A DNA stretch of 64,000 nt from Escherichia coli (GTDB lineage Bacteria; Pseudomonadota; Gammaproteobacteria; Enterobacterales; Enterobacteriaceae), in assembly GCF_002854065.1 (NCBI RefSeq), contig NZ_CP024147.1; one strand, 5' to 3'. Under the pieces are notes generated by a model that was not told the origin of the DNA, searched no databases, and saw nothing but the letters and a program-made list of their open reading frames with translations. Positions 1 through 49,050 of this stretch are shown piece by piece. Within the stretch, counting starts at the first letter, position 1, and every line of letters starts with the position of its first letter. The position numbers and the translations under genes are program-made.

Positions 1-31
1 AATTAAAGCAAACACTTATCAAGGAACACAA

Positions 32-1111: not shown

Positions 1112-1137
1112 TCGTTCTGTAATATTTGATTGTCTGT

Positions 1138-1168
1138 GCCGGATGCGGCGTGAATGCCTTATCCGGCC
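1138..1168. repeat. REP (repetitive extragenic palindrome) element
   Basis: gccggatgcggcgtgaatgccttatccggcc, canonical E. coli REP/PU palindrome downstream of alr. Confidence 0.8.
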
Positions 1169-1363
1169 AATAAAATCCTACCAATTCAATAAGTTGATAT
1201 TCTTTCATGCTCTTATAAAGGTCGTGCCTCTGGCGGATGTACGTTTGTCATGAGTCTCACTCTGTTGCTAATTGCCGGTCGCCCCTGAACATCCACTCGA
1301 TCTTCGCCTTCTTCCGGTTTATTGTGTTTTAACCACCTGCCCGTAAACCTGGAGAACCATCGC

Positions 1364-2557: not shown

Positions 2558-2778
2558 TGCAGGAAAGCAGGCTGGAGTTACCCAGCCTGCAGTGAAATTA
2601 AACTGTCGTCGCTTTCACTCTTTCTTTATAGATGATTTTTTTGATGCCATCGTTCTACGTAAGAGATAATAAACGTTGTTAGTTCTTTTATTGTTAAGCT
2701 TATCCCAATTATCTGGAATTCCTTATCCTGTTTTTTTGTGTGGAGTAATAATTTCTGCACATCTAACCATTATTAAAT

Positions 2779-3264
2779 TTAATAATAAGTATCGGGTTTG
2801 TTACGATAGAATTTTTCTATATCCTCAAGAATATGCTTTGCCTTATTGCCTGTGACTTTCTGAGATTCAATTATAGTATCGTTAAATTCTAAAGTTAAAG
2901 AGAACTCTTTTTTTCCGCTTTGTGTAAGTTTAACCTTATATTGATTACCAATATCAAATAAAAAGGTCCTGTAATGAGAATAATCACCTTTAACCTCCTC
3001 GGCAAAACAGCAAAGCGTGCAAATATACATAAAATCTTTCTTACCCCTGATTTTGTTAACTAAATCAATAAATGCGTGAAAAACTGTACTTGCAATAGAA
3101 CTTGATACTTCTTCTCCAGGTCTACAAAAATCTTTTGCAATTTTTAACTGTGTTTCTATATATAAAAAAAGATCTATGGCATAAGAGATATCTTTGTTAT
3201 TTAGTGCATCTAGCTCAACAGGTAAAGATGTCATTTTGTTGTTGTTCACATATGATATATTCAT
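2779..3264 (-). CDS. hypothetical protein, AT-rich gene of unknown function (161 aa from Met-14 of the 174 aa ORF)
   Basis: Uninterrupted minus-strand ORF 2779..3303 in a markedly AT-rich segment between tyrB and aphA; internal ATG at 3262-3264 is preceded by GGAG with an 8 nt spacer; no recognisable motif, no signal peptide. Confidence 0.5.
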   Translation of the reverse strand: MNISYVNNNKMTSLPVELDALNNKDISYAIDLFLYIETQLKIAKDFCRPGEEVSSSIASTVFHAFIDLVNKIRGKKDFMYICTLCCFAEEVKGDYSHYRTFLFDIGNQYKVKLTQSGKKEFSLTLEFNDTIIESQKVTGNKAKHILEDIEKFYRNKPDTYY

Positions 3265-3386
3265 ATCATCATCTCCATCGGGAGTAATAAAATTAGTCAC
3301 CATTGTAGGGTAGGGTTCTGGTCAATCAGAAATCATCTTTATAAACTTCGATTGTTTTTGTAATGCTGTATCATTAAGTTCATTAA

Positions 3387-4379
<993 letters not shown>

Positions 4380-4384
4380 CAGAG

Positions 4385-4421
4385 CGGGAGAGCGTGATGC
4401 TCTCCCGAATGCTGTTTTTTT
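4385..4421 (+). terminator. rho-independent terminator downstream of aphA
   Basis: cgggagagc-gtgat-gctctcccg hairpin followed by a T-run (ctgttttttt). Confidence 0.7.
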
Positions 4422-4489
4422 AATCACACCTTTATCCTTTCGCTGTCTTGCTGCAAACTGATTAAGAGAGTTTTATCAAGGAGCAGCAC

Positions 4490-4906
4490 ATGTGGTATCA
4501 AAAGACGCTCACGCTTAGCGCCAAATCTCGTGGGTTTCATCTGGTAACGGATGAAATTCTGAATCAGCTGGCTGATATGCCGCGCGTTAACATCGGCTTA
4601 CTGCATCTGTTGCTGCAACATACCTCCGCCTCTCTGACACTTAATGAGAACTGCGATCCCACCGTACGCCACGACATGGAGCGTTTTTTCCTCCGCACCG
4701 TTCCCGACAACGGAAATTATGAGCATGACTATGAGGGAGCAGACGATATGCCTTCTCATATCAAATCCTCAATGCTGGGAACATCGCTTGTATTGCCGGT
4801 GCATAAAGGGCGTATTCAGACCGGCACCTGGCAAGGCATTTGGCTGGGGGAACATCGCATCCACGGCGGATCGCGTCGCATCATCGCGACACTACAAGGG
4901 GAGTAA
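4490..4906 (+). CDS. yjbQ: UPF0047 family protein YjbQ
   Basis: 138 aa [26 protein letters not shown]..., conserved position. Confidence 0.85.
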
Positions 4907-4909
4907 AAA

Positions 4910-5266
4910 ATGACCATTTCGGAGTTGCTACAATATTGCATGGCAAAACCAGGCGCAGAACAGAGCGTGCATAACGACTGGAAAGCGACGCAGATCAAAG
5001 TGGAAGATGTACTGTTTGCGATGGTGAAAGAAGTAGAAAATCGCCCAGCTGTTTCGCTGAAAACCAGCCCGGAGCTGGCGGAGCTGCTACGTCAGCAGCA
5101 CAGCGATGTGCGTCCAAGCCGCCATCTGAATAAAGCGCACTGGAGCACCGTGTATCTCGACGGTTCGCTGCCAGATTCGCAAATCTATTATCTGGTGGAT
5201 GCGTCTTATCAGCAGGCGGTGAATTTACTGCCGGAAGAAAAACGTAAATTGCTGGTGCAACTCTGA
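4910..5266 (+). CDS. yjbR: uncharacterised protein YjbR
   Basis: 118 aa ORF 4 bp after yjbQ stop; conserved position. Confidence 0.8.
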   Translation: MTISELLQYCMAKPGAEQSVHNDWKATQIKVEDVLFAMVKEVENRPAVSLKTSPELAELLRQQHSDVRPSRHLNKAHWSTVYLDGSLPDSQIYYLVDASYQQAVNLLPEEKRKLLVQL

Positions 5267-5274
5267 AAGGAAAA

Positions 5275-5293
5275 GGCCGCTCGGAAAGCGGCC
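5275..5293. terminator. bidirectional hairpin terminator between convergent yjbR and uvrA
   Basis: ggccgc-tcggaaa-gcggcc stem-loop located between the two stop codons. Confidence 0.55.
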
Positions 5294-5300
5294 TTAACGA

Positions 5301-8123
5301 TTACAGCATCGGCTTGAGGAAGCGTGCCGTATGCGAAGCTTCGCACTCCGCGACGGTTTCTGGCGTACCGGAGACGAGGATTTCGCCGCCGCCACTGCCG
5401 CCTTCTGGTCCCAGGTCGACAATCCAGTCAGCGGTTTTGATCACGTCGAGATTGTGCTCAATCACCACAATGGTGTTGCCCTGATCGCGCAGTTTATGCA
5501 GTACGTCGAGCAGTTGCTGAATATCGGCGAAGTGCAGACCGGTGGTCGGCTCGTCGAGAATATACAGCGTCTGCCCGGTGCCGCGTTTTGACAGCTCACG
5601 CGCCAGCTTCACGCGCTGGGCTTCACCACCAGAAAGTGTGGTTGCGGACTGCCCCAGGCGAATGTACGTCAGACCAACGTCCATCAACGTTTGCAGCTTA
5701 CGCGCCAGAGCTGGCACCGCATCAAAGAACTCACGCGCCTCTTCGATGGTCATATCCAGCACTTCGTGGATGGTTTTGCCTTTGTACTTAATCTCCAGCG
5801 TTTCACGGTTATAGCGTTTACCTTTGCACTGGTCGCACGGCACGTAAATGTCCGGCAGGAAGTGCATCTCCACTTTGATCACGCCATCGCCCTGACAGGC
5901 CTCGCAGCGTCCGCCACGGACGTTAAAGCTGAAACGTCCTGGCGTATAACCACGCGCACGGGATTCCGGTACGCCCGCAAACAGTTCGCGCACAGGCGTA
6001 AACACGCCGGTATAGGTCGCCGGGTTAGAACGCGGAGTACGACCAATTGGGCTTTGGTCGATATCGATTACTTTGTCGAAATGCTCCAGTCCCTGAATAT
6101 CGCGATACGGTGCCGGTTCGGCGATGGTCGCACCATTCAACTGGCGTTGGGCAATCGGGAACAGTGTGTCGTTAATCAGCGTCGATTTACCGGAACCTGA
6201 AACCCCTGTGATGCAGGTAAACAGACCGACTGGCAGCGTTAGCGTCACGTCTTTCAGGTTGTTGCCGCGTGCGCCAGTCAGCTTAAGTACTTTTTCCGGA
6301 TTCGCCGGAACGCGTTTCTTCGGCACTTCAATCTTGCGTTTACCGCTCATGTACTGTCCGGTCAACGACTCCGGCACCGCCATAATCGCTTCCAGCGGAC
6401 CTTCCGCGACCACTTCACCGCCATGTACACCTGCACCAGGACCGATATCGATCACATGATCAGCGGCGCGAATCGCGTCTTCGTCGTGCTCCACCACAAT
6501 CACGGTATTACCGAGATCGCGCAGATGGATAAGTGTACCCAACAAGCGCTCGTTATCGCGCTGGTGCAGGCCGATAGACGGCTCGTCCAGTACATACATA
6601 ACACCAACCAGGCCCGCACCAATCTGGCTCGCCAGACGAATACGCTGGGCTTCACCGCCAGAAAGCGTTTCTGCCGAGCGGGAAAGTGTCAGGTAATTCA
6701 GGCCGACGTTAACGAGGAATTTCAAACGATCGCCGATCTCTTTAAGAATTTTTTCCGCAATCTTCGCCCGCTGACCTGCGAGTTTGAGATTGTTGAAGAA
6801 TTCCATCGCATGACCAATGCTCATGTCGGAGATGGCGGGCAGCGGCGTATTCTCGACATACACGTGGCGCGCTTCCCGACGCAGACGCGTCCCTTCGCAG
6901 CTGGCACACGGACGATTACTGATAAACTTGGCTAATTCTTCGCGTACCGCGCTGGACTCCGTCTCTTTATAACGGCGCTCCATATTGTGCAGCACGCCTT
7001 CGAACGGATGACGACGAATGGAGGTATCGCCACGATCGTTCATGTATTTGAATTCAATGTTTTCTTTGCCAGAACCGTACAACACCACTTTATGCACGTT
7101 CGCGCTCAGGCTGCCCCACGGCGCTTCGACGTCGAACTTATAGTGATCTGCCAGCGATTTCAGCATCTGAAAATAATAGAAGTTGCGGCGATCCCAGCCA
7201 CGGATCGCACCACCTGCCAGCGACAGTTCCGGATTCTGGATCACGCGGTCAGGATCGAAATATTGCTGTACGCCGAGGCCGTCACAGGTCGGGCAGGCAC
7301 CTGCCGGGTTGTTAAACGAAAACAGTCGCGGCTCCAGTTCACGCATACTGTAGCCGCAAATTGGGCAGGCGAAGTTGGCGGAAAACAGCAGCTCTTCCGC
7401 TTTCGGGTCGTCCATATCCGCCACTACCGCGGTACCACCGGAAAGCTCCAGCGCGGTTTCAAACGACTCGGCAAGACGTTGGGTAAGATCGTCACGCACC
7501 TTGAAGCGATCAACCACCACTTCAATAGTGTGTTTCTTTTGCAGTTCCAGTTTCGGCGGATCGGAAAGATCGCAGACTTCGCCATCAATACGAGCACGGA
7601 TGTAACCCTGGCTTGCCAGGTTCTCCAGCGTTTTGGTGTGTTCGCCTTTGCGCTCTTTAATGATTGGCGCGAGCAGCATCAGACGCTTGCCTTCCGGCTG
7701 CGACAGCACGTTATCCACCATCTGGCTGACGGTTTGCGCCGCCAGCGGGACGTCGTGGTCCGGGCAACGCGGTTCGCCGACGCGGGCGAACAACAAACGC
7801 AAATAGTCGTGGATTTCGGTGATTGTCCCCACCGTAGAACGCGGGTTATGAGACGTCGATTTCTGCTCAATTGAGATGGCAGGAGAAAGCCCCTCAATAT
7901 GATCGACGTCCGGCTTTTCCATCAGTGACAGAAACTGCCGCGCGTAGGCGGAAAGGGATTCAACGTAACGGCGCTGCCCTTCGGCATATAAGGTGTCGAA
8001 AGCGAGCGAGGATTTGCCAGAACCCGAAAGCCCGGTCACGACAATGAGCTTGTCGCGGGGGATAACGAGGTTGATGTTTTTGAGATTATGGGTGCGGGCG
8101 CCCCGAACTTCGATCTTATCCAT
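5301..8123 (-). CDS. uvrA: excinuclease ABC subunit A
   Basis: 940 aa ORF; two ABC ATPase modules ([20 protein letters not shown]), zinc-finger cysteines. Confidence 0.95.
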
Positions 8124-8208
8124 TCACCTTTCCCGGATTAAACGCTTTTTTGCCCGGTGGCATGGTGCTACCGGCGATCACAAACGGTTAATTATGACAC
8201 AAATTGAC

Positions 8209-8224
8209 CTGAATGAATATACAG
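8209..8224. promoter_or_regulatory. LexA (SOS) box in the divergent uvrA/ssb promoter region
   Basis: Minus-strand reading CTGTATATTCATTCAG matches the CTG-N10-CAG SOS box; lies between divergent uvrA and ssb. Confidence 0.75.
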
Positions 8225-8377
8225 TATTGGAATGCATTACCCGGAGTGTTGTGTAACAATGTCTGGCCAGGTTTGTTTCCCGGAACCGAGGTCACAACAT
8301 AGTAAAAGCGCTATTGGTAATGGTACAATCGCGCGTTTACACTTATTCAGAACGATTTTTTTTCAGGAGACACGAAC

Positions 8378-8914
8378 ATGGCCAGCAGAGGCGTAAACAA
8401 GGTTATTCTCGTTGGTAATCTGGGTCAGGACCCGGAAGTACGCTACATGCCAAATGGTGGCGCAGTTGCCAACATTACGCTGGCTACTTCCGAATCCTGG
8501 CGTGATAAAGCGACCGGCGAGATGAAAGAGCAGACTGAATGGCACCGCGTTGTGCTGTTCGGCAAACTGGCAGAAGTGGCCAGCGAATATCTGCGTAAAG
8601 GTTCTCAGGTTTATATCGAAGGTCAGCTGCGTACCCGCAAATGGACCGATCAATCCGGCCAGGATCGCTACACCACAGAAGTCGTGGTGAACGTTGGCGG
8701 CACCATGCAGATGCTGGGTGGTCGTCAGGGTGGTGGCGCTCCGGCAGGTGGTAATATCGGTGGCGGTCAGCCGCAGGGCGGTTGGGGTCAGCCTCAGCAG
8801 CCGCAGGGTGGCAATCAGTTCAGCGGCGGCGCGCAGTCTCGCCCGCAGCAGTCCGCTCCGGCAGCGCCGTCTAACGAGCCGCCGATGGACTTTGATGACG
8901 ATATTCCGTTCTGA
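8378..8914 (+). CDS. ssb: single-stranded DNA-binding protein
   Basis: 178 aa; [30 protein letters not shown]-fold start, Gly/Gln-rich tail ending DFDDDIPF. Confidence 0.95.
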
Positions 8915-8983
8915 TTTGTCATTAAAACAATAGGTTATATTGTTTTAAGGTGGATGATTAAAGCATCTGCCAGCCATAAAAAA

Positions 8984-9006
8984 GAAGCCTCCGTTATGGA
9001 GGCTTC
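8984..9006. terminator. hairpin terminator between ssb and convergent yjcB
   Basis: gaagcctcc-gttat-ggaggcttc preceded by an A-run on the plus strand (U-run for the minus-strand transcript). Confidence 0.6.
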
Positions 9007-9012
9007 TACGTA

Positions 9013-9294
9013 TCAGGTCAAAATCATTGGCCACTGTGGCGGTGTCTGATTCATCTCTTCTATCATCACCGACTCGATGTTGTGCCAGATGGCGGTGATG
9101 TCCGCCATTGTGATGCCAAGCAACCCCATTGCGAACCAGCAGGCGGAAACCACGCCCAGACCGCTGCTGATCACTGCAAGCCCGACATAATCAGACCGAC
9201 GAAAACGGATGTTGAGTGTGCTGGCCAGAAACATCATTACGGCACTAAGAAGTTGCCAGCGAAGAAGAACCATGCCAGTGGTGAGGGTAGCCAT
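9013..9294 (-). CDS. yjcB: small inner-membrane protein YjcB
   Basis: 93 aa from MATLTTG...; two hydrophobic helices; ORF-track extension to 9393 is judged a run-on. Confidence 0.75.
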   Translation of the reverse strand: MATLTTGMVLLRWQLLSAVMMFLASTLNIRFRRSDYVGLAVISSGLGVVSACWFAMGLLGITMADITAIWHNIESVMIEEMNQTPPQWPMILT

Positions 9295-9722
9295 CAAACA
9301 ATTCCTCTGAAAAGAGCCGATGCCCTGGACAGCGCGGCGTTGTTCACGGGAGGCGTGGTACACTCTGGCTATCGCGGGGCTTGCAGAACACAAAAATGAA
9401 ACACTCTGTTTGTTTCATTAATTTTGTGAACTATATCACAATTGATTGTTTGTTAGCCATATTAGGCCGTGACTTTTATTGCTGTACAGATTATGTGGTT
9501 TTTCAGTGGCATTAAGGGTATATCTTCCCGCCGCCTCTGTATTCCTGTAGAAAATTAATTTTGAATATCAATGAATTATTTTCATCCAGGTGACGATTAA
9601 AAAGGTATCAATTTCAAATCAGGCAAAAGTGCTATTTATACCGTAAGATTTATCTAAAGACGTCGGTAGCCAGGGTTTCACCTTGCAATGGCCGGGTATA
9701 AACAGGCAGGAAATTGATAGCA

Positions 9723-11309
9723 ATGAGTCATCGTGCACGACACCAATTACTGGCGTTGCCGGGCATTATCTTTTTAGTTCTCTTTCCCATCATTCTGTCG
9801 CTATGGATTGCCTTCCTTTGGGCAAAATCAGAAGTGAATAATCAGCTCCGAACCTTTGCTCAACTGGCACTGGATAAATCCGAGCTGGTCATTCGCCAGG
9901 CAGATTTAGTGAGCGATGCAGCAGAACGCTATCAGGGGCAAGTTTGCTCTCCAGCCCATCAAAAGCGAATGTTAAATATTATTCGTGGCTATCTTTATAT
10001 TAATGAATTGATCTATGCCCGTGATAACCATTTTTTATGCTCATCGCTGATAGCGCCTGTAAACGGCTATACGATTGCACCGGCCGATTATGAGCGTGAC
10101 CCTAACGTTTCTATCTATTATTACCGCGATACGCCTTTTTTCTCTGGCTATAAAATGACCTATATGCAGCGGGGAAATTATGTGGCGGTTATCAACCCTC
10201 TCTTCTGGAGTGAAGTGATGTCTGATGACCCGACATTGCAATGGGGTGTGTATGATACGGTGACGAAAACCTTTTTCTCGTTAAGCAACGAGGCCTCGGC
10301 AGCAACGTTTTCTCCGCTGATTCATTTGAAGGATTTAACCGTACAAAGAAATGGCTATTTATATGCGACAGTTTATTCGACAAAACGCCCAATTGCAGCC
10401 ATTGTTGCGACTTCATATCAACGTCTTATAGCCCATTTTTATAATCATCTTATTTTTGCGTTACCCGCCGGTATTTTGGGGAGTCTTGTTCTGCTATTAC
10501 TCTGGCTACGTATTCGACAAAACTATTTGTCTCCCAAACGCAAATTGCAACGCGCCCTAGAAAAACATCAACTTTGTCTTTATTACCAGCCAATAATCGA
10601 TATCAAAACAGAAAAATGTATCGGTGCTGAAGCGTTATTACGTTGGCCTGGTGAGCAGGGGCAAGTTATGAATCCGGCAGAGTTTATTCCGCTGGCAGAA
10701 AAGGAGGGGATGATAGAACAGGTAACTGATTATATTATTGATAATGTCTTCCGCGATCTGGGCGCGTACCTTGCAACACATGCTGATCGCTATGTTTCTA
10801 TTAATCTGTCGGCCTCCGATTTTCATACGTCACGGTTGATAGCGCGAATCAATCAGAAAACAGAGCAATACGCGGTGCGTCCACAGCAAATTAAATTTGA
10901 AGTGACTGAACATGCATTTCTTGATGTCGACAAAATGACGCCGATTATTCTGGCTTTCCGCCAGGCCGGTTACGAAGTGGCAATTGATGATTTTGGTATT
11001 GGCTACTCTAACTTGCATAACCTTAAATCATTGAATGTCGATATTTTGAAAATCGACAAATCGTTTGTTGAGACGCTGACCACCCATAAAACCAGTCATT
11101 TGATTGCGGAACATATCATCGAGCTGGCGCACAGCCTGGGGTTAAAAACAATCGCTGAAGGCGTCGAAACGGAGGAGCAGGTTAACTGGCTGCGCAAACG
11201 CGGCGTGCGCTATTGCCAGGGATGGTTCTTTGCGAAGGCGATGCCGCCGCAGGTGTTTATGCAATGGATGGAGCAATTACCCGCGCGGGAGTTAACGCGC
11301 GGGCAATAA
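9723..11309 (+). CDS. pdeC: c-di-GMP phosphodiesterase (CSS periplasmic domain + EAL)
   Basis: 528 aa from [11 protein letters not shown]-terminal TM, EAL-domain motifs ([22 protein letters not shown]). Confidence 0.88.
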
Positions 11310-11311
11310 AA

Positions 11312-11635
11312 CTACAGGCGGTGGCGATAATCGCTGGGAGTGCGATCAAACTGCCGACGGAAAACGCGGGAGAAGGTCTGCTGCGAGACATAACCCAGGT
11401 CCATTGCGATATCAAAAATCGGACGCTCGGTGGTGCGCAACTCAACGGCGGCCAGTAACAGGCGGCGTTGACGAATGTAATCGCCAAGCGTCTGATGCGT
11501 CACCGTGCGGAACATCCGTTGCAGGTACCACTTTGAATAGCCTGATTTTTTTGCGACGACATCAATGTTAAGCGGCTGGTCAATATGCTCGTCAATCCAT
11601 GCGATAAGATCCTGAATAATTTTCTGATGGGACAT
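11312..11635 (-). CDS. soxS: AraC-family superoxide-response transcriptional activator
   Basis: 107 aa MSHQKIIQDLIAWIDEHIDQPLNIDVVAKKSGYSKWYLQRMF. Confidence 0.95.
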   Translation of the reverse strand: MSHQKIIQDLIAWIDEHIDQPLNIDVVAKKSGYSKWYLQRMFRTVTHQTLGDYIRQRRLLLAAVELRTTERPIFDIAMDLGYVSQQTFSRVFRRQFDRTPSDYRHRL

Positions 11636-11691
11636 AAATCTGCCTCTTTTCAGTGTTCAGTTCGTTAATTCATCTGTTGGGGAGTATAATT

Positions 11692-11709
11692 CCTCAAGTT
11701 AACTTGAGG
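11692..11709. promoter_or_regulatory. SoxR binding site / soxS promoter spacer palindrome
   Basis: Perfect palindrome cctcaagttaacttgagg in the soxS-soxR divergent intergenic region. Confidence 0.8.
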
Positions 11710-11720
11710 TAAAGCGATTT

Positions 11721-12185
11721 ATGGAAAAGAAATTACCCCGCATTAAAGCGCTGCTAACCCCCGGCGAAGTGGCGAAACGCAGCGGTGTGGCGGTATCGGC
11801 GCTGCATTTCTATGAAAGCAAAGGGTTGATTACCAGTATCCGTAACAGCGGCAATCAGCGGCGTTATAAACGTGATGTGTTGCGATATGTCGCAATTATC
11901 AAAATTGCTCAGCGTATTGGCATTCCTCTCGCGACCATTGGTGAAGCGTTTGGCGTGTTGCCCGAAGGGCATACGTTAAGTGCCAAAGAGTGGAAACAGC
12001 TTTCGTCCCAATGGCGAGAAGAGTTGGATCGGCGCATTCATACCTTAGTGGCGCTGCGTGACGAACTGGACGGATGTATTGGTTGTGGCTGCCTTTCGCG
12101 CAGTGATTGCCCGTTGCGTAACCCGGGCGACCGCTTAGGAGAAGAAGGTACCGGCGCACGCTTGCTGGAAGATGAACAAAACTAA
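11721..12185 (+). CDS. soxR: MerR-family redox-sensing regulator with [2Fe-2S] cluster
   Basis: 154 aa; C-terminal [17 protein letters not shown] cysteine cluster. Confidence 0.95.
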
Positions 12186-12214
12186 AGCGCCACAAGGGCG
12201 CTTTAGTTTGTTTT
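12184..12214. terminator. hairpin terminator overlapping soxR stop (possibly bidirectional)
   Basis: aaagcgcc-acaa-gggcgcttt followed by agtttgtttt. Confidence 0.6.
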
Positions 12215-12458
12215 CCGGTCTTTGTCTTTCTCTCTATCCCGCTGGTACACAGGAGGGTTTCCCCCGACGTCAACACACCTCATTCGAGCACGTGGTGGAG
12301 GTTCCGGTTGGTGTTGATGCTTTAATTGTATGTCACCGACGTTTCTTCGCCAGTGTAAAAGTATACTTTTTAGCCGCAATATTTTTGTCATCTCAGACGA
12401 TTTTTTATCGCAATCCTGAACGGTATACGGCTCGATAACGCTGCAATCTTGCGCATCG

Positions 12459-12474
12459 ACGATAACGTTTGCGC
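12459..12474. promoter_or_regulatory. candidate PurR box upstream of ghxP
   Basis: acgataacgtttgcgc matches 13/16 of the palindromic PurR consensus ACGCAAACGTTTGCGT; a second AACGTTT-centred site lies at 12606-12621. Confidence 0.35.
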
Positions 12475-12731
12475 ATCAATTGCCTGGTTTTTCATCGTCA
12501 AGACAATAAAAGAGAAAAAAGCAGCAAACTTCGGTTGAAAAAGCCGCTATGATCGCCGGATAATCGTTTGCTTTTTTTTACCACCCGTTTTGTATGCGCG
12601 GAGCTAAACGTTTGCTTTTTTGCGACGCAGCAAATTGTCGCAAACCTGGAGCGGGAAGATAACGTTTCGCTGGCAGGGGATTGTCCGCCACGCATCTTGA
12701 CGAAAATTAAACTCTCAGGGGATGTTCTCTT

Positions 12732-31570: not shown

Positions 31571-31712
31571 ATGCCTGATGCGACGCTGGTGCGTCTTATC
31601 AGGCCTACGTCAGACAGCGCAATAGCCTGATTTAGCGTGATTTTGTAGGTCGGATAAGGCGTTTACGCCGCATCCGACATCAACGCCTGATGCGACGCTT
31701 AACGCGTCTTAT
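31571..31712. repeat. BIME: cluster of three REP elements between gltP and yjcO
   Basis: gatgcctgatgcgacgc...gtcttatcaggcctac, gtaggtcggataaggcgtttacgccgcatccgac, gcctgatgcgacgcttaacgcgtcttatcgggcctat. Confidence 0.85.
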
Positions 31713-31722
31713 CGGGCCTATC

Positions 31723-32412: not shown

Positions 32413-32505
32413 TTTGATAATACGATTGGGTAGGGAGTAACCAGTATAAAGAGTTCGAATGGATAAAAAAACAGCCTCCGAAAGGAGGCTGTAGAAAGGA
32501 CTGTA

Positions 32506-34653
32506 TTACGCCAGTGCCGCTTCGCGCAGGCGAGTTTTCAACTTGTTGTACTCGTCAATCACGTACTGCTCGGCGGCGCGCTGATCGGCGATCGGCTCGA
32601 CGCGCACGGCGCAGTATTTGTATTCCGGCGTTTTCGTAATCGGGCTTAAGTTTTCGGTAACCAGCTCGTTACAGGCACCAATCCACCACTGGTAGGTCAT
32701 ATAAATCGCCCCTTTGTTCGGACGATCGCTGACCTGCGCACGGGTGATAATTTTGCCTTTACGCGAGTGCACCCAAACCAATGCCTCATCTTCAATACCC
32801 AGACGTTTGGCGTCTTCGGTATTGATTTGTGCGTAGCCAGGTTCATCCGCCAGCGCCGCCAGTGCCGCACAGTTACCGGTCATCGAACGGCAAGAGTAGT
32901 GACCAACTTCACGCACCGTTGACAGTACCATCGGGTACTCGTCGGTGAGTTTGTCGATTGGCGCTACCCAGTCGCAGGTGAAGAACTGCGCCAGACCGTT
33001 CGGGGTATCAAACTTCTCTTTAAACAGATAAGAAGTCCCCTGATCGGCATCTGAAGTATCGCGGCAAGGCCACTGAATGAAGCCCAGTTCGCCCATTTTC
33101 TCGTAAGTCGCACCGTAGAAATCCGGGCACAGATGACGCAACTCATCCCAGATCTCCTGGGTGTTGTTGTAGTGCATCGGATAACCCATACGGGTGGCGA
33201 TTTCACTGATGATTTGCCAGTCCGTTTTCAGATCCCATTTCGGTTCAACTGCTTTGAAGAAACGCTGGAAGCCACGGTCAGCCGCAGTAAACACGCCTTC
33301 ATGCTCGCCCCACGACGTTGACGGTAAAATAACATCCGCCGCCGACGCGGTTTTGGTCATAAAGATGTCCTGAACGATGACCAGTTCCAGATCTTCAAAG
33401 GCTTTACGTACTGCCGACAGCTCCGCGTCAGTTTGTAGCGGATCTTCGCCCATAATGTACGCGGCACGCACTTCGCCATGCGCTGCGCGGTGCGGCAGCT
33501 CGCTGATGCGATAACCGGTATGAGCAGGCAGGCTTTCCACGCCCCAGGCTTTGGCGAATTTCTCGCGGTTAGCCGGATCTTTCACATACTGGTATCCCGG
33601 ATACGTATCCGGCAGCGCGCCCATATCGCAGGCACCCTGAACGTTGTTCTGACCACGAACCGGGTTAACACCCGCATGTGGCTTACCGAGGTTACCGGTC
33701 AGCATCGCGAGGCTGGTCAGAGAACGCACGGTTTCCACGCCCTGGTAGAACTGGGTTACACCCATGCCCCACAGGATGGCGGCGCTTTTCGCCTGGGCAT
33801 ACATCCGTGCCGCCTGACGAATCTCACTGGCGCTGACGCCGGTGATATCTTCAACCGACTCCGGCGTGTAGCCTTCAACGATTTTACGATACTCTTCAAA
33901 GCCTTCTGTACGTGAAGCGACGAACGCTTTGTCGTACAGATTTTCTTCAATAATGACATGGCCCATCGCATTCAACAGCGCGATGTTCGAGCCGTTTTTC
34001 AGTGCAATGTGCATGTCAGCAATGCGCGCGGTTTCAATTTTGCGCGGATCGCAGACGATAATTTTCGCCCCGTTACGTTTAGCGTTAATTACGTGATTCG
34101 CTACGATTGGGTGGGAATCCGCCGGGTTGTACCCGAAAACGAACACTAAATCGGTATTATCAATTTCGTTAATAGCATTGCTCATTGCGCCATTACCGAC
34201 CGATTGGTGCAGACCTGCAACCGATGGGCCGTGTCAGACACGAGCGCAGCAGTCAACGTTATTGGTACCAATAACGGCGCGCGCAAATTTTTGCATTACA
34301 TAGTTGGTTTCGTTACCCGTACCACGCGAGGAGCCGGTCGTCTGGATGGCATCCGGACCGTACTTCTCTTTGATGGCGCTCAGGCGCTCGGCAACGTAAT
34401 TCAGTGCCTCATCCCAGGAAACAGGTTCGAGTTTGCCGCCACGCTGGCGACGGATCATGGGGGTTTTCAGGCGCGGGGTCAGGATCTGGGTATCGTTAAT
34501 GAAATCCCAGCCATAATAACCCTTCAGACACAGGGTACCCTGGTTGGTTTTCCCCTGCGCTGCCTCCGCCCGGACGATTTTGCCGTTATCGACGACCAGG
34601 TTGATTTTGCAACCTGATGCGCAATAGGGGCAAACCGTGACGACTTTTTTCAT
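32506..34653 (-). CDS. fdhF: formate dehydrogenase H, selenocysteine-containing molybdoenzyme (UGA-Sec at 34234..34236)
   Basis: Two in-frame ORFs separated only by TGA; N-terminus MKKVVTVCPYCASGCKINLVVDNGK (4Fe-4S), residues flanking the TGA are ...CCARV-U-HGPSVAGL; total 715 aa. Confidence 0.95.
34195..34233 (-). other. SECIS element (bacterial selenocysteine insertion hairpin) of fdhF
   Basis: mRNA sequence immediately 3' of UGA: CACGGCCCAUCGGUUGCAGGUCUGCACCAAUCGGUCGGU, matching my recollection of the fdhF SECIS. Confidence 0.85.
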
Positions 34654-34703
34654 CGGTCTCGCTCCAGTTAATCAAATCACGCATACGCGCTCTCGACTAC
34701 AGT

Positions 34704-34719
34704 ATGCATCTTTTATGCC
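34704..34719 (-). promoter_or_regulatory. sigma-54 (-24/-12) promoter of fdhF
   Basis: Minus-strand reading TGGCAT-aaaag-ATGCA versus consensus TGGCAC-N5-TTGCA, ~50 bp upstream of the fdhF start. Confidence 0.7.
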
Positions 34720-34850
34720 ACATTTTATTTGGGGTCATTCCCTGATATTACGGGCACTATTTATTCAAAACTCTGACGAAAAACAGGCTGTCGTCAGTTT
34801 TGACGTGACGAAACGAAATACCGCGTGACAGCCATCACGCGGCAGACATT

Positions 34851-42171: not shown

Positions 42172-42879
42172 ATGAAACCCGTCGTGCTGGTGGTGGATGA
42201 TGACACGGCTATCTGCGCACTGTTGCAGGACGTGTTAAGTGAACATGTCTTTACGGTTTCAGTCTGCCATACCGGACAGGAGGCCATATTGCGTATTGAG
42301 GGCGATCCTGACATTGCGCTGGTGGTGCTGGATATGATGCTACCCGATACCAACGGCCTGAGGGTATTGCAGCAAATCCAGAAACTGCGTCCGACATTGC
42401 CGGTGGTGATGTTGACCGGCATGGGCAGTGAGTCTGATGTGGTGGTCGGGCTGGAAATGGGCGCGGATGATTACATCTGCAAACCGTTCACCCCGCGGGT
42501 GGTGGTCGCACGACTGAAAGCGGTGTTGCGACGGGTTGGTGCGCTGGCGGTTAATGACGAGAAAAGCGCCGGGCTGTCATTCAATGGCTGGTATCTCGAT
42601 ACCATGCGCTGCCAGTTGCACAATCCGCTTCAGCAACATGTCGAGTTAACTCAGGGCGAATATGGCTTGTTACTGGCTCTGGCGCAAAACGCGCGTCGGG
42701 TATTGAGCCGCGAGCAGTTGCTGGCGTTCACCCACAGCGACAGCGTGGAGGTGTTTGATCGCACCATCGACGTATTAATCATGCGCTTACGACGCAAAAT
42801 CGAACTCAACCCGCATCAGCCGATGTTGATTAAAACTCTGCGCGGTCTGGGGTATGTCTTCGCTGCCGACGTGCATTAA
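42172..42879 (+). CDS. OmpR/PhoB-family response regulator (REC + winged helix)
   Basis: MKPVVLVVDDD...VVLDMMLPDTNG receiver motifs; C-terminal wHTH (LTQGEYGLLLAL...LRGLGYVF); GGAG 7 nt upstream of ATG. Confidence 0.85.
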   Translation: MKPVVLVVDDDTAICALLQDVLSEHVFTVSVCHTGQEAILRIEGDPDIALVVLDMMLPDTNGLRVLQQIQKLRPTLPVVMLTGMGSESDVVVGLEMGADDYICKPFTPRVVVARLKAVLRRVGALAVNDEKSAGLSFNGWYLDTMRCQLHNPLQQHVELTQGEYGLLLALAQNARRVLSREQLLAFTHSDSVEVFDRTIDVLIMRLRRKIELNPHQPMLIKTLRGLGYVFAADVH

Positions 42880-43877
42880 TCCGACATTTCTGTTTGCAGC
42901 TCTTCCAGCGTTTTCGCCCCGTCGATGGCATTGGCGCATAACAGGCTTGCCCGCGCGCAGGCGTGTGCCAGTTTGATGCTCTCGGTAAGCGTCCAGCGTT
43001 CATGGCAGCCATATAAAAATCCGGCACAAAATGCATCGCCCGCGCCGACGCTGCCGATAATTTCCCGTTGTTCTAACTTTTGCGAAGGGATCCACACGCC
43101 GCCCTGTTCTGGGGTCTCTCCCCACGCCCCTTCCGGGCAGTGGATCACCACCCGCTGGCGCACGCCCGCATCTAACAGTTCACGCGCGGCGGCAGCAATA
43201 TGCGCGATATGCGGTTCGCCGTTGGGTAACCGAATTTCCAGCCCGCTAAACTCCCCGGCCTCCAGTTCGTTAATTACCAGATAATCCAGATGGCGCAACG
43301 CGGGCAGCACCAGCGGCTGATAACGCGGATCGCCCTTACGGGAGACCAGGTCGAGTGAGGTTTCAAAGCCAGTATCACGCATTTGCGCCAGCAGGCGTGC
43401 GCTACGGGTGCCGTAAACATCGTCCGGCATATCCAGGCTGTCGAGCAACAGTAAATAGCCGAGATGGAAAATCTTCATGGTGTTATCGAGCTGATCGAAC
43501 GCCGGAAGATCCAAAAGTCTGTTTGCACCCGGCGAATGGAAAAACGTCCGCTGCCCGCTTGGGTCTGTCATCACCTGCGACATCGACGTCGGGGCAAAGG
43601 TAGTGCGCTGCACATGCTGACGATTGACGTGATATTGCTCAAGCATCGCCATGATGTAATCGCCGTCGCTGTCCTGACCGATTAGCCCAACCGCCTGTAA
43701 CGGTAGCCCGGTGCGCATTTTCGCCAGCGTCAGCAGGACGTTAAGCGGCGCACCGCCGGTGGAGCGTTCGCTGTGGGTGATCTCCGCCAGCCAGCCGCGC
43801 TCTGGCCACTGGATAATCTGATGGACGTGGTCAACCAACATATTGCCTGCGGCGATAATCCCTTTACGCTCCATCAT
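42876..43877 (-). CDS. PfkB-family carbohydrate kinase
   Basis: 333 aa; N-terminal GG motif (GGAPLNV) and PfkB signature VGAGDAFCAGFL. Confidence 0.82.
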   Translation of the reverse strand: MMERKGIIAAGNMLVDHVHQIIQWPERGWLAEITHSERSTGGAPLNVLLTLAKMRTGLPLQAVGLIGQDSDGDYIMAMLEQYHVNRQHVQRTTFAPTSMSQVMTDPSGQRTFFHSPGANRLLDLPAFDQLDNTMKIFHLGYLLLLDSLDMPDDVYGTRSARLLAQMRDTGFETSLDLVSRKGDPRYQPLVLPALRHLDYLVINELEAGEFSGLEIRLPNGEPHIAHIAAAARELLDAGVRQRVVIHCPEGAWGETPEQGGVWIPSQKLEQREIIGSVGAGDAFCAGFLYGCHERWTLTESIKLAHACARASLLCANAIDGAKTLEELQTEMSD

Positions 43878-44734
43878 GCCTGCCCCGCACTGCCAAAAAT
43901 ACGCATCTGTTGTGCAACCGTATCGCTGATGGCGGCTTCCACTGCCAGCAGTAACTCGGCAAACTCGTCATACATCGGCTGACGGTGCGCCATTCGGGCC
44001 TCAACGGCAGCCAGCGCCGCTTGCGACATGCCAGTGTAGAAATTGATTTTGTGGATACCCAGTTCGATGGCGCGGCGGAAATCGGCATCACTAATCCCTG
44101 AGCCGCCGTGTAATACCAGCGGGATAGCAGCCTGCTGGCGGATAGCGTCGAGGCGCGGGAAATCGAGTTTCGGTTCGCCGCGATATTTGCCGTGTGCATT
44201 GCCAATCGCCACGGCCAACGCGTCAATGCCGGTACGGTCGACAAAATCACGCGCCAGTTGCGGATCGGTAAACAGGGATTCATCGGCATGACCATAGAGC
44301 GCACCGCCTTCGTCGCCACCCACCGCGCCCAGTTCAGCTTCTACCGATACGCCAACGGCATGGCACATTTTCACCACTTCCCGCGTCTGGCGGACATTTT
44401 CTTCATACCCCAGCGTGGAGCCATCAAACATTACCGAGCTGAATCCCAGCCGCAACGCTTGCACCACCGATTCAAAATGCAGTCCGTGATCGAGATTTAA
44501 CACCACCGGAATGGCATGACGCGCCGCTTCAAATTTCACTGTCTCGACCAGGGAATCCAGCGAGATATATTTAAAATGTACTTCGGCAATGTTGATAATA
44601 AAGGGCGAACGTTCTTGTCTGGCAGCAGCAAACAAGGCGCGTAAAAAGTGCGAGTCCAGCACATTAAACGCACCTAACGAATAGTGATGTTCGCGGGCAT
44701 GTGCCAGCCCTTCAGCGAGAGAAATCAATGGCAT
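43874..44734 (-). CDS. class II (zinc) ketose-bisphosphate aldolase, FbaA/GatY/KbaY family
   Basis: 286 aa; MPLISLAEGLAHAREHHYSLGAFNV, LNLDHG and LVLHGGSGI motifs. Confidence 0.82.
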   Translation of the reverse strand: MPLISLAEGLAHAREHHYSLGAFNVLDSHFLRALFAAARQERSPFIINIAEVHFKYISLDSLVETVKFEAARHAIPVVLNLDHGLHFESVVQALRLGFSSVMFDGSTLGYEENVRQTREVVKMCHAVGVSVEAELGAVGGDEGGALYGHADESLFTDPQLARDFVDRTGIDALAVAIGNAHGKYRGEPKLDFPRLDAIRQQAAIPLVLHGGSGISDADFRRAIELGIHKINFYTGMSQAALAAVEARMAHRQPMYDEFAELLLAVEAAISDTVAQQMRIFGSAGQA

Positions 44735-44748
44735 AACTTTATCCTTAT

Positions 44749-45432
44749 TCAGCGGAACTGGCGGTATTCGTTACACAATACCAACTGTGCAGGTTCGTCT
44801 TCGTCAATCAGGTTGTAGCGGGCCAGCGGGCGTAAAAAGTGGTTATCATGGTCGTCGTCATTGACTGAAGAGACTTCGCCAACCAGCACATCGCCAAAAC
44901 CGGTTTCCGCCCAAAAACTGTGATAAAGGCCGGGTGGCAGGCAGATACTTTCGCCGGGGGTCAGGCGTAACTGACTGCCTGCGACATGGGTCTGGCGGCA
45001 GCCGTCGATCACCACCGTAACGTCGGTATCAACTGTTTGCTCGTTGCTATCGGCATTCCACAGTTCAACAATCAAATTGCCGCCGCCGCGATTGATAATG
45101 TCCTCGCGCTTACGCCAGTGAAAGTGCATTGGCGTGACCTGCGCATCGCGCACATGCATGATCTTCTCGGCGTAACATTTCACATACGGCATTCCTTTTG
45201 CTGAGCCGTTACGTAGGGTAAACAGCGTCAGCCCCTGTGCTGCAAAGTTGTTGCCACCAAAAGCGGTAACATCCCAGCCGAGTTTGAGATCAAAAACTTC
45301 CTCCCACGCGGCGGTGTCGAGCTGCTGCCATTGGGCAGGCGAGAAACTGGCAAAGGGCGGAAGATGTACGTCATGTTGCGAAAAGAATTGCCGTGTATGG
45401 CCGAGAATGTCGTTTATAGCGGAGCGTTTCAT
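44749..45432 (-). CDS. cupin-type sugar isomerase (D-lyxose/D-mannose ketol-isomerase-like)
   Basis: 227 aa; cupin motif 1 HFHWRKRED and motif 2 PPGLYH; sugar-catabolic context. Confidence 0.7.
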   Translation of the reverse strand: MKRSAINDILGHTRQFFSQHDVHLPPFASFSPAQWQQLDTAAWEEVFDLKLGWDVTAFGGNNFAAQGLTLFTLRNGSAKGMPYVKCYAEKIMHVRDAQVTPMHFHWRKREDIINRGGGNLIVELWNADSNEQTVDTDVTVVIDGCRQTHVAGSQLRLTPGESICLPPGLYHSFWAETGFGDVLVGEVSSVNDDDHDNHFLRPLARYNLIDEDEPAQLVLCNEYRQFR

Positions 45433-45486
45433 CGAAAGCGTTCTCCTTAGCGGTGGCCGGGCAGCATCGCCGCCCGGCGTGTGGAC

Positions 45487-46428
45487 TTATTTCACCGTCC
45501 AGCCTTTGTAATTGCCGACGTTGTTTTTATCGATCATCGTCACCGGGATCAGCACCGGCTCTTTCGGCGCAGGTTTGCCCTGCAAAATGTCGTAGCCAAT
45601 TTCCACCGCTTTCGCTGCCATCACCTGGGGATCTTGCGCCGGAGTAGCGACAAACAACGAGTTCTCACGCTTGAGCGCCTCTTCGGCGTCCGGGCTTCCG
45701 TCCACACCGACAATAAAGAACTCGTTACGTTGCGCCTGTTTTGCTGCCAGATCGGCACCGATTGCGGTGGGATCGTTAATCGCAAATACGCCGTCGATCT
45801 TCGGATTTGCTGCCAGCAGTCCCGTCATTACCTCCAGCCCGCCTTCACGACTGCCTTTCGCGTTCTGGTTGTCAGAGAGCACTTTGATGTCAGGATGGCG
45901 TTTAAATTCAGTCTGGCATCCTTCGACGCGGTTTTGCACGGCGGATACCGGCGGGCCGTTGATGATCACCACATTGCCTTTGCCTTTCAGGCGATCGGTG
46001 ATGTATTTACAGGCCATTTCGCCCGCCTGGGTGTTATCGGAGGTGATGGTGGCATCAGCACCTTCTGCCGCTACGTCAACCGCGACAACTACGATCCCGG
46101 CATCTTTCGCCCGTTTCACCGCCGGGCCGATCCCTTTTGAATCGGCAGCGTTGAGGATAATCATATCGACGTTAGCGGCGATAAAGTTGTCTATCTGCGA
46201 CACCTGCTGACCCAGATCGTAGCCGCTGGAAACCAGCGTCACTTTGACGTTATCGCCTGCCAGTTTGCGTGCTTCCAGCTCCGCGCCTTTGGTGATCTGC
46301 ACGAAGAACGGGTTCGCCAGATCGCCCACCGTTACGCCTATTGATTTCAGTTCTTTCGCTTGGGCGAACGGTGCTGCGGCCAGCAGCGCGCCTGCACAGA
46401 GCGCGGTCACTAAGGGCTTCAATCTCAT
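45487..46428 (-). CDS. periplasmic monosaccharide-binding protein (ribose/allose-type)
   Basis: 313 aa; signal peptide MRLKPLVTALCAGALLAAAPFAQA; PBP type I fold hallmarks. Confidence 0.85.
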   Translation of the reverse strand: MRLKPLVTALCAGALLAAAPFAQAKELKSIGVTVGDLANPFFVQITKGAELEARKLAGDNVKVTLVSSGYDLGQQVSQIDNFIAANVDMIILNAADSKGIGPAVKRAKDAGIVVVAVDVAAEGADATITSDNTQAGEMACKYITDRLKGKGNVVIINGPPVSAVQNRVEGCQTEFKRHPDIKVLSDNQNAKGSREGGLEVMTGLLAANPKIDGVFAINDPTAIGADLAAKQAQRNEFFIVGVDGSPDAEEALKRENSLFVATPAQDPQVMAAKAVEIGYDILQGKPAPKEPVLIPVTMIDKNNVGNYKGWTVK

Positions 46429-46446
46429 GCTGTATTCCTCATGTGT

Positions 46447-47421
46447 TTATGCACTTTGATGGTGTCGGGTACGGTATTTGTCGATCAGCACCGCAATGAT
46501 GATCACCGCCCCTTTGATCACCAGTTGCCAGAAGTAAGAGACGCCCATTAAGGTCATGCCATTGTTGAGCGTGGCGATAATTAGCGCGCCGACCAGCGTG
46601 CCGGTGATGGTGCCGATGCCGCCGACAAAACTGGTGCCGCCGAGGATCACCGCCGCAATGGCGTCCAGCTCGTACCCCATACCTAAGTTGCCGTTGGCGC
46701 TGTACAGCCTTGAGGCGTTCATAATTCCGCCCAGCCCTGAAAGCAGGCCGCTCATACCATAAACAAACAGCAGCACCAGCCAGACCTTAATGCCGGTAAG
46801 ACGCGCCGCCTGCATATTGCCGCCGACGGCGTAGATATGAACGCCAAGCGTGGTGCGGCGCAGAATAAACCAGCACAGCACAATCACTGCGAGGGCAATC
46901 ACCACCAGCCACGGGACCGGCCCGAGATAGTTATTGCCTATCCACTCGAAATTAATGTTGGAGTTGATAACCGTGGTGCCGTCCGCCAGCAGATACGCCG
47001 CCCCGCGCAGCGCCGTATAGGTGCCAAGCGTGACGATAAACGGTGGCAATCCGGCAAAGGCCACCAGCGCGCCGTTGAACAGCCCCAGCAGCAGGCCGAG
47101 CATCAGCGCCGCCGGGATCGACAGCATGGCGAACTCAGGGCTAAGGGAGACGACCATCGCCGCCACCGCTGTGGTGCCGAGGATCGAACCCACGGAAAGA
47201 TCGATCCCGCCGGTCAAAATGATGAAGGTCATCCCCGCGGCCAGAACAATGTTGATCGATGCCTGGCGGGTAATATTCAGCAGGTTGCTTTCGGTAAAAA
47301 AGTTTGGCGCGATAAAGCCAAATACCGCCACGATCAGAATCAAAATGGGCAAGATGCCGACCGTTTGCATCAGATCGCTCATCAGCATTTTTTTGGCAGA
47401 AGTCTTTGCAGAGGTCGTCAT
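46447..47421 (-). CDS. sugar ABC transporter permease (RbsC/AlsC-like)
   Basis: 324 aa, ~10 TM segments. Confidence 0.85.
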
Positions 47422-48937
47422 GAGGGCACCGCCTGGGAATGGGCGTCGTTGACGCCAGTCGCTAAGGTCATAATGTTTTCCTGGGTGATGTTTTTGCCGT
47501 TTAACTCACCGGCAATGCTGCCTTCGCGCATCACATAGACGCGATCGCTCATTCCCACTATCTCCGGCAGTTCGCTGGAGATCATCAGGATCGCCACGCC
47601 CTTGCGCGCCATCTCGTTCATGATCCGGTAGATCTCGCTTTTTGCGCCAACGTCCACGCCGCGGGTGGGTTCATCGAGCAGTAAAATGCGCGGCCAATTG
47701 CCACCCAGCGGGAGATCAACAGCTTTTGCTGATTGCCGCCGGAAAGCCCGCCCGCGCGTACCTGGGCATGAGGCACGCGAATGTTGAGCAACTTGATGGC
47801 GTCATCGGAAATGGTTTGCGCTTTTTTGCGATTGAGCATTCCCCAGCGGGCATCGCGCTCCAGGGTCGCCATGGTGATGTTTTCGGCTGCCGCCATTTCA
47901 AGGAACAGCCCCTGTTCTTTGCGATTTTCGGTGAGAAAGCCAATGCCAAGATCGATGGCTTCGCGCGGGGAGTGGATCACCACCGGTTCACCATCGACTT
48001 CAATCATTCCGCCTGTCGCTTTCCGCACGCCGAAGATCAACTGCGCCAGTTCGGAACGTCCGGCACCCACCAGTCCGGCGAGGCCAACAATTTCGCCGGA
48101 ACGCACCAGCAGGCTACTCGGCTGGACTTTGCCGCCGTCGGTCAGGTGGTGAACATTCAGGCGGGCTTTACCGAGCGGGATATCGCGCTCTTTATTGAAC
48201 AGATCGCTCAGTGGCCTGCCGACCATCATCCGCACCAGCTCCCCGGCATTGAGGTTATCGCGGGTCAGGCTGCCAACGTATTGCCCGTCGCGCAGCACGC
48301 TGACGCGATCGGAAAGCTCATACACTTCCGCCATGCGGTGGCTAATGTAGATAATCGCCATCCCTTCATCGCGCAGCCGCATAATCAGTTCAAACAGGCG
48401 GTGAGTTTCGCGGGAGGAGAGGGCGGCGGTGGGTTCGTCCATCACCAGAATGCGGCTGTTGCGATGTAGCGCGCGGGCGATTTCGACCTGCTGTTGCTCG
48501 GCAATGGTCAGTGTCATGACCTTATCGCTGGCGTTAAACTGCGCGCCGAGGCGGTCGATCACTCTTTGCGCCTGCACCAGCATCTCTTTACGCTGCACCA
48601 GCCCGCCGTGGGAAAGCTCGCTACCGAGGAAAATGTTCTCTGCCACCGTCAAATTGGGCGCCAGCTGCATCTCCTGATAAATCAGCGTAATACCGGCGCT
48701 TAAGGCATCTTTTGGCGTGCGAATGTGAAAGGGCTTGCCGTCTATGAGGATCTCGCCGCTGGTGGCGGTATACGCCCCCGCCAGCACCTTCATCAGCGTG
48801 CTTTTTCCCGCGCCGTTTTCCCCCATCAGGGCATGGATCTCGCCAGGGTAGACCGTCAAATCCACCCCTTTGAGCGCATAAAATTTGCCGAAGGCTTTGG
48901 CAATATTGCGCATCTCCAGAACTGGCGTGCTGTTCAT
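47418..48937 (-). pseudogene. sugar ABC transporter ATP-binding protein (double ABC module), frameshifted near 47690-47700
   Basis: N-module Walker [10 protein letters not shown]; second signature LSGGNQQK; frame A ends ...[13 protein letters not shown] while frame B carries the expected continuation [13 protein letters not shown]...; consistent with a 1 bp loss in ggccgcgc (expected [10 protein letters not shown]). Confidence 0.75.
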
Positions 48938-49050
48938 GGTGGACTCCTGCGAGGTTGTCGATATCAGCACTCCATCACAGGAAAGTAAATGCAAAATGTC
49001 AGAAGCCGTTCATATTTGTCATATTGCGATTTTTCTTCACGGAGCGTGAT

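Follow-up and report, generated by a model that had tools for sequence, protein, structure and literature searches.

The selenocysteine codon and SECIS element of fdhF in an Escherichia coli genome: predicted recoding and synonymous-site conservation

Formate dehydrogenase H (FDH-H), the product of fdhF, is a molybdopterin selenoenzyme and the formate-oxidizing catalytic subunit of formate hydrogenlyase. Its UGA codon for selenocysteine 140 (Sec140), together with the accompanying SECIS element, is the prototype locus at which bacterial Sec recoding and the SECIS were defined. Formate dehydrogenases N and O of E. coli, encoded by fdnG and fdoG, belong to the same superfamily, and their genes likewise carry a UGA followed by a 3' hairpin that is bound by SelB. 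In contrast to FDH-H, FdnG and FdoG are periplasmic, respiratory enzymes of approximately 1015 amino acids (aa) with a Tat signal. To our knowledge, fdnG and fdoG are not under sigma-54/FhlA control. They are other genes with another SECIS sequence, and they lie outside the 64-kb stretch of E. coli DNA analyzed here (the window). In a search of the PDB, FDH-N (1kqf) was a distant match to the FdhF protein of the window (E 7.6e-45).

The fdhF SECIS has been described as a stem-loop of nucleotides (nt) 15 to 31, positioned 11 nt from the UGA, in which U17, G23, and U24 contact SelB (PMC8659212). The complex of SelB, GTP, and Sec-tRNA(Sec) on this apex delivers Sec in competition with release factor 2 (RF2), as stated in PMC8659212 and in PMC4513850. 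PMC4513850 reports a recoding efficiency of 30 to 40% and the competition with RF2, both measured on an fdhF fragment covering residues 130 to 179. At the level of transcription, a sigma-54 ChIP-seq motif has been assigned to fdhF (b4079) with a distance of 41 (PMC4591121). In addition, fdhF is named as an FhlA target in a study that quotes CATTTCGTACGAAATG as the enhancer consensus of the regulon (PMC4987338).

The window contains a locus that closely follows this description. We estimate a probability of about 97% that it carries an intact E. coli fdhF in which UGA140 is recoded as Sec via the SECIS and which is transcribed in a sigma-54-dependent manner, and none of the analyses done yielded evidence contradicting the recoding. 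Compared with fdhF of E. coli K-12 (b4079), nothing differs at the SECIS element. The protein is that of the FDH-H structures in the PDB, and the spacing, the bulged U, the GGUC loop, the sigma-54 motif, and the flanking genes yjcO and mdtP are alike. The recoding of fdhF is already well known and is a textbook E. coli case. The modest addition made here is a synonymous-site profile across Enterobacterales that, among the matches listed, shows RNA-level constraint on the SECIS. Biologically, there is otherwise nothing new at this prototype locus, given its identity to the K-12 reference in protein and SECIS. The features of the locus are collected in Table 1.

Table 1. Features of the fdhF locus, in coordinates of the 64-kb window
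Feature	Position	Strand	Details
Conserved upstream block TTTCGTCACGTCAAAACTGACGA	34813..34791	-	at least 90% column identity
Conserved upstream block GCCTGTTTTTCGTCAG	34788..34773	-	at least 90% column identity
Sigma-54 promoter, -24 TGGCAT / -12 TGCA	34705..34720	-	pattern match and ChIP-seq identity
Shine-Dalgarno GGAG, 8 nt ahead of the fdhF ATG	34662..34665	-	read from the sequence
fdhF coding sequence, 715 codons plus TAA	32506..34653	-	single frame, PDB identity, TIGR01591, RefSeq annotation
Bacterial SECIS, limits of Rfam SECIS_2 (RF01988)	34187..34241	-	87.1 bits, model positions 1-55
Classical SECIS hairpin of approximately 40 nt	34236..34197	-	
In-frame UGA, codon 140, read as Sec	34234..34236	-	sole internal stop; X140 in FDH-H
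Minimal 17-nt apical stem-loop GGUUGCAGGUCUGCACC	34206..34222	-	nt 15-31 from the U of UGA; candidate SelB-binding site
Intrinsic terminator-like hairpin and T run, 14 nt past the fdhF stop	32471..32492	-	9-bp stem with 6 GC pairs, then TTTTTTT

The fdhF reading frame and its product

In the list of open reading frames (ORFs), fdhF appears as two ORFs in the same frame on the minus strand. The upstream ORF (34653..34234) encodes 139 aa and takes the TGA at codon 140 as its stop, while the downstream ORF (34185..32506) encodes 559 aa and starts at the first ATG, 16 codons past the TGA. Uninterrupted translation of 34653..32506 yields 715 positions with one internal stop, the TGA, and a terminal TAA, in agreement with the codon sum (139 + 1 + 575 = 715). 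The first-pass annotation had attributed the apparent division of a 715-aa gene into pieces of 139 and 559 aa to an in-frame TGA, which is what the single frame with its one TGA confirms. ORF callers and pseudogene filters that take this codon for a stop would mistakenly divide or remove the gene of a working and important anaerobic enzyme.

The product was compared to the PDB and to the NCBIfam model TIGR01591 with Cys in place of Sec140 in the query. It is E. coli FDH-H, the other 714 residues being identical to the PDB protein with zero substitutions over residues 1 to 715. Chains matched over this entire length were those of entries 1aa6 (1aa6_A), 1fdi, 1fdo, 2iv2, and 7z0t, and the internal TGA aligns to X (Sec) at residue 140 of the crystallized chain. 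The score against the equivalog TIGR01591 (Fdh-alpha) was 1095.7 bits over residues 6 to 685, at a cut-off of 666.25. The N-terminal cysteines that bind the 4Fe-4S cluster (C8, C11, C15, and C42) are present in the translation, in the context VCPYCASGC...GTLCLKG. Further frame-disrupting changes would have counted against recoding; straight translation and the PDB identity revealed no second such change across the 715 positions. Of 5426 complete E. coli genomes, 5419 contain the 2.7-kb region, annotated with fdhF between yjcO and mdtP. RefSeq annotates one fdhF coding sequence of 2148 nt in E. coli genomes, with some records adding "selenocysteine-containing."

The ORF pattern could also be read as two genes, one for a 139-aa Fe-S domain protein and another, with a new start at ATG 34185, for a 559-aa molybdopterin protein, an in-frame ATG being available 16 codons past the TGA. 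However, no Shine-Dalgarno-like sequence was seen ahead of ATG 34185, and RefSeq records a single coding sequence. Moreover, the 16 codons between TGA and ATG encode HGPSVAGLHQSVGNGA, a conserved active-site stretch that the solved structure contains and that shows no protein-level variation across 109 relatives among the matches listed. Because this stretch is both invariant and part of the crystal structure, and because ATG 34185 is not preceded by a ribosome-binding site, we consider a split gene excluded, bar a negligible residual chance.

The SECIS element and its conservation

The whole 64-kb window was searched with covariance models of all 4227 Rfam families. The sole SECIS match in the window was SECIS_2, which aligned over the full model (positions 1 to 55) at an E value of 1.8e-17, its score exceeding the gathering score of 70. 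The 55-nt element agrees with the SECIS_2 consensus at every determinate position, and its minimum free energy (MFE) structure (-19.7 kcal/mol) is the same as the consensus structure of the family. The first-pass annotation had placed a SECIS hairpin directly after the TGA, in an interval (34195-34236) that comprises the UGA and the 39 nt making up the hairpin. The Rfam match and a fold that starts within a few nt of the TGA support this placement.

Folding of the RNA gave a more qualified result. The hairpin forms, as had been predicted for 34195-34233, with an MFE of -14.2 kcal/mol for 34233..34195 and -14.9 kcal/mol for 34236..34190. However, its energy does not discriminate it from shuffled sequences: no stability above composition was seen relative to dinucleotide shuffles (z = -0.94, -1.64, -1.23, and -0.67), and 13 to 49 of 200 shuffles folded no worse than the real hairpin. 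As the stability is not significant by this comparison, the case for the SECIS is not rested on folding energy. The evidence for the hairpin is its specific sequence, shape, and conservation.

Within the element, the apical stem-loop GGUUGCAGGUCUGCACC has a bulge at U17/U18 and a GGUC loop containing G23 and U24, and it stands 11 nt from the UGA; the element here carries all of the features listed in PMC8659212. The bulged base is U18 in the MFE structure and U17 in the centroid, which are equivalent alternatives. We expect SelB to bind at this 17-nt apex, judging from these features. For this exact sequence, SelB binding and SelB-dependent Sec insertion are documented in PMC4513850 and PMC7590224.

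To assess conservation, one genome per species was scanned with a pattern that fixed codon positions 1 and 2 of U-H-G-P-x-V-A-G-L-H-Q, such that UGA was demanded and the wobble positions were left free. The scan yielded at least 120 loci, those listed coming from Citrobacter, Enterobacter, Salmonella, Klebsiella, Serratia, Cedecea, Buttiauxella, Arsenophonus, and other genera. Among the matches listed, there were 109 distinct segments of 360 nt from more than 20 Enterobacterales genera, with a protein identity to the window of 82 to 100% (median, 97%). The TGA was present in 109/109 of these loci among the matches listed, as the search pattern required. In contrast to the UGA, the wobble positions were free to vary, and the 17-nt apex was nevertheless unchanged in 120/120 loci among the matches listed.

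The third codon positions of the 109 segments reveal where synonymous change is tolerated. Among the matches listed, codons +4 to +9, +11, +12, and +15 have zero third-position entropy and codons +1 and +2 have 0.08 bits, versus 0.5 to 1.9 bits at most flanking codons. Codons +3, +13, and +14 vary freely at synonymous sites in the same matches, and these correspond to one unpaired position and to the often-broken pairs of columns 17:39 and 8:47. At codon +10, the third position is only A or G among the matches listed, and U13 stays paired (U-A to U-G). The substitution pattern indicates that RNA structure, beyond the protein, constrains the fdhF sequence here. Within the species, the conservation is close to complete: of 5420 matching E. 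coli records, 5411 carry the 55-nt element and its TGA context with 100% identity.

Base pairing was examined over the 32 distinct haplotypes among the matches listed. Of the cells, 95.3% were paired, compared to 20 to 47% when the partners were slid. All changes in the conserved SECIS pairs of these haplotypes were pair preserving and one sided; those in the outer helix, among the matches listed, were C-G to U-G. The lower-stem pairs 8:47 and 17:39 were broken in 12/32 and 18/32 haplotypes, respectively, among the matches listed, and compensatory double changes were seen at 0/20 pairs in the same set. The strong conservation of the element leaves too little variation for covariation statistics, and synonymous-site conservation was therefore used instead. 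As judged from these alignments, the SECIS structure is backed by conservation and by one-sided, pair-preserving changes, not by covariation.

The summary in PMC8659212 confines importance to the 17-nt apex and describes high variability at most of the remaining SECIS bases. Among the matches listed, however, the synonymous sites in the lower stem and in the outer helix spanning the UGA (codons +1, +2, +11, +12, and +15) are no less frozen than the apex. The full 55-nt structure may have an extra selected role, such as an effect on refolding kinetics between ribosomes or a shielding of the UGA from RF2, a speculative idea suggested by the sequence pattern and one that we consider rather unlikely. 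The frozen lower stem and outer helix could merely reflect shallow sampling of close relatives.

These data also bear on whether fdhF is a pseudogene that arose by nonsense mutation and makes only a 139-aa fragment. Mechanical ORF calling does split the gene at the TGA, and RF2 terminates a fraction of the ribosomes at the fdhF UGA, according to PMC4513850. However, the 575 codons past the TGA are identical to those of the crystallized enzyme at the protein level and carry no other lesion, the TGA context is conserved species-wide as given above, and the downstream synonymous sites are constrained at the RNA level in an element that fits the SECIS model. A decaying pseudogene would lack this identity, conservation, constraint, and SECIS match. 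We therefore reject this explanation on the grounds of downstream identity, species-wide conservation, and RNA-level constraint and regard it as effectively refuted, with hardly any probability left to it. The earlier view that the interruption is programmed recoding and not a pseudogene is in line with the SECIS match, the identity to FDH-H, and the conservation.

Selenocysteine machinery and the proposed recoding mechanism

Recoding of UGA140 depends on the products of selA, selB, selC, and selD, whose presence in the genome had been suggested as a check. No tRNA genes were found in the 64-kb window, and the annotation of the matching stretch of E. coli strain CUWW06 contains no sel genes. 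Like the sel genes, fhlA and the hyc operon are located outside the window. The K-12 sel genes were used as queries against 5426 complete E. coli genomes, in which selC was matched in 5424, selA-selB in 5425, and selD in 5425. Given this near-universal presence in E. coli, selA, selB, selC, and selD are probably also present in the genome from which the window derives.

In the mechanism that we propose, the mRNA just 3' of UGA140 would fold into the SECIS hairpin during translation, and SelB with GTP and Sec-tRNA(Sec) would bind the apical 17-nt stem-loop through the bulged U17 and the loop bases G23 and U24. The distance of 11 nt between apex and UGA would allow the tethered ternary complex to reach the A site once the ribosome meets this codon. 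There, the SelB complex would compete with RF2, and Sec would be inserted. The inserted Sec would then coordinate the active-site molybdenum. For SelB binding and RF2 competition, as for the activation by FhlA considered below, we infer these steps from established knowledge of the system.

Read-through of a UGA in the absence of selenium is a known minor route under selenium limitation. In this case, the codon would be read by a near-cognate tRNA (Trp or Cys) or by tRNA(Sec) charged with Ser or Cys, resulting in a non-seleno enzyme. Efficient recoding does need enough selenium, as stated in PMC4513850. However, the determinants specific to SelB (U17, G23, U24, and the spacing of 11 nt) are unbroken and do not vary, almost all complete E. 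coli genomes possess the machinery genes, and residue 140 is non-standard in the structures solved for this very sequence. As an account of how UGA140 is decoded, selenium-independent read-through is thus highly improbable, and next to the insertion of Sec by way of the SECIS it would be a minor side route at best.

The promoter and upstream region

Over the two strands of the window, the pattern TGGCAY-N6-TGCW is matched only once, at 34720..34705 (minus strand). As approximately 0.95 matches are expected by chance in 64 kb, it is the location of this match that is informative. The 17-mer GTGGCATAAAAGATGCA is the same as the sigma-54 ChIP-seq motif given for fdhF in PMC4591121. Counting 24 nt from the GG to +1 puts the predicted transcription start at approximately 34694, which is 41 nt ahead of ATG 34653. 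In 81/104 related loci among the matches listed, a motif of the sigma-54 form precedes the predicted ATG by 51 to 87 nt. The sigma-54 promoter that the first-pass annotation had placed upstream of fdhF can hence be located at this site, which is identical to the one mapped by ChIP-seq.

In its -24 GG and -12 GC elements with canonical spacing, the promoter resembles those of the formate regulon (hyc, hyp, hydN-hypF, and fdhF). It differs from the regulon pattern further upstream, where CATTTCGTACGAAATG is not recognizable. No match to this FhlA consensus was found upstream of fdhF, the best window having 7/16 mismatches, and the region instead contains blocks built on TTTCGTCA / TGACGA repeats. 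These two blocks, TTTCGTCACGTCAAAACTGACGA and GCCTGTTTTTCGTCAG, together span 34773..34813, or approximately -119 to -79 from the predicted start. Their column identity holds across 80 distinct upstream regions from other genera, among the matches listed. TTTCGTCA occurs twice upstream of fdhF, 32 nt apart, and the blocks contain the inverted repeats TCGTCA/TGACGA and CTGACGA/TCGTCAG.

The conserved blocks are a natural candidate for an FhlA enhancer (UAS), and the literature together with these blocks suggests the link of fdhF to FhlA and the formate regulon. Transcription from the sigma-54 promoter, starting 41 nt upstream of the ATG, would need an enhancer-binding activator. Per the literature, this activator would be FhlA with formate, probably acting on the blocks.

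Elsewhere, the window differs from K-12 by IS1 insertions in yjcF and by a different sugar-utilization island beyond yjcS. From position 18803 to its end, the window is 99.98% identical to E. coli strain CUWW06. In the window, neither phnF nor phnD is disrupted; the flags "internal stop" and "frameshifted" belong to CUWW06 and not to the sequence analyzed here.

fdhF-type loci and records in other genomes

Among the loci listed, several Enterobacterales carry two fdhF-type loci per genome, both with the same UGA and SECIS element. These genomes are Pluralibacter gergoviae, Cedecea neteri, Leclercia sp. 29361 and Enterobacter sp. JUb54, and the pairs are the loci L026/L027, L035/L036, L073/L074 and L085/L086. 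In addition, the sigma-54 promoter motif TGGCAY-N6-TGCW was absent upstream in 23 of the 104 fdhF-type loci among the matches listed. Together, these two observations suggest differently regulated fdhF paralogues in Enterobacterales.

A search of the collection of 5426 complete E. coli genomes with the fdhF region found copies of the gene at six places in plasmid-typed records, and a search with the 55-nt element found SECIS copies at four places in such records. The annotation is inconsistent in one chromosome record (H43), where fdhF is called 'formate dehydrogenase N subunit alpha'.

Left flank and the IS1 pair

The closest strain, CUWW06 (NZ_CP182139.1), is 99.98% identical to the window from position 18803 onward. 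To the left of this breakpoint, CUWW06 (L005, 1-18800) carries a plasmid-derived block containing resistance genes and insertion sequences, including tet(A), ISKpn19, TnAs1, IS5, umuDC and parAB, whereas the window (1-18802) holds ordinary chromosomal sequence, including sraL. The breakpoint falls within the remnant of a pentapeptide-repeat gene, probably yjcF judging by its position, that is broken by IS1 copies. The two copies are 100% identical to each other and lie in direct orientation, and the 9-bp target-site duplication differs from one to the other (TCTCTTTTA and ATTGGCTCT). Both appear to have inserted independently, and the intervening DNA could act as a composite transposon.

Features in the window outside fdhF
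Feature	Coordinates	Strand	Details
sraL (RyjA)	12178-12318	-	Hfq-binding small RNA; Rfam RF01408, 153.3 bits, full length
IS1 copy 1	16002-16769		768 bp
Pentapeptide-repeat gene, fragment	16812..17354
IS1 copy 2	17400-18167		768 bp
Pentapeptide-repeat gene, fragment	18141..18881
naRNA4, REP-type	31648-31718	+	RF02564, 72.2 bits; between gltP and yjcO
Sugar-utilisation island	about 42172-51400		past yjcS
phnF	59907-60641		intact, 244 aa
phnE	60653..61495		open frame
naRNA4, REP-type	61451-61531	+	RF02564, 69.1 bits; between phnE and phnD
phnD	61538-62554		intact, 338 aa

Sugar-utilisation island and phn genes

The sugar-utilisation island encodes a response regulator, a carbohydrate kinase, a ketose-bisphosphate aldolase, a D-lyxose/D-mannose isomerase, an ABC transporter and a hybrid sensor kinase; in K-12, the als/rpiB genes occupy this position. 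The region is variable within the species, since only 2318 of the 5426 E. coli genomes cover at least 80% of 22000-46999.

In contrast to their intact counterparts in the window, phnF and phnD of CUWW06 are flagged 'internal stop' and 'frameshifted'. The differences between the two sequences that lie behind these flags amount to 1 nt and 31 nt.
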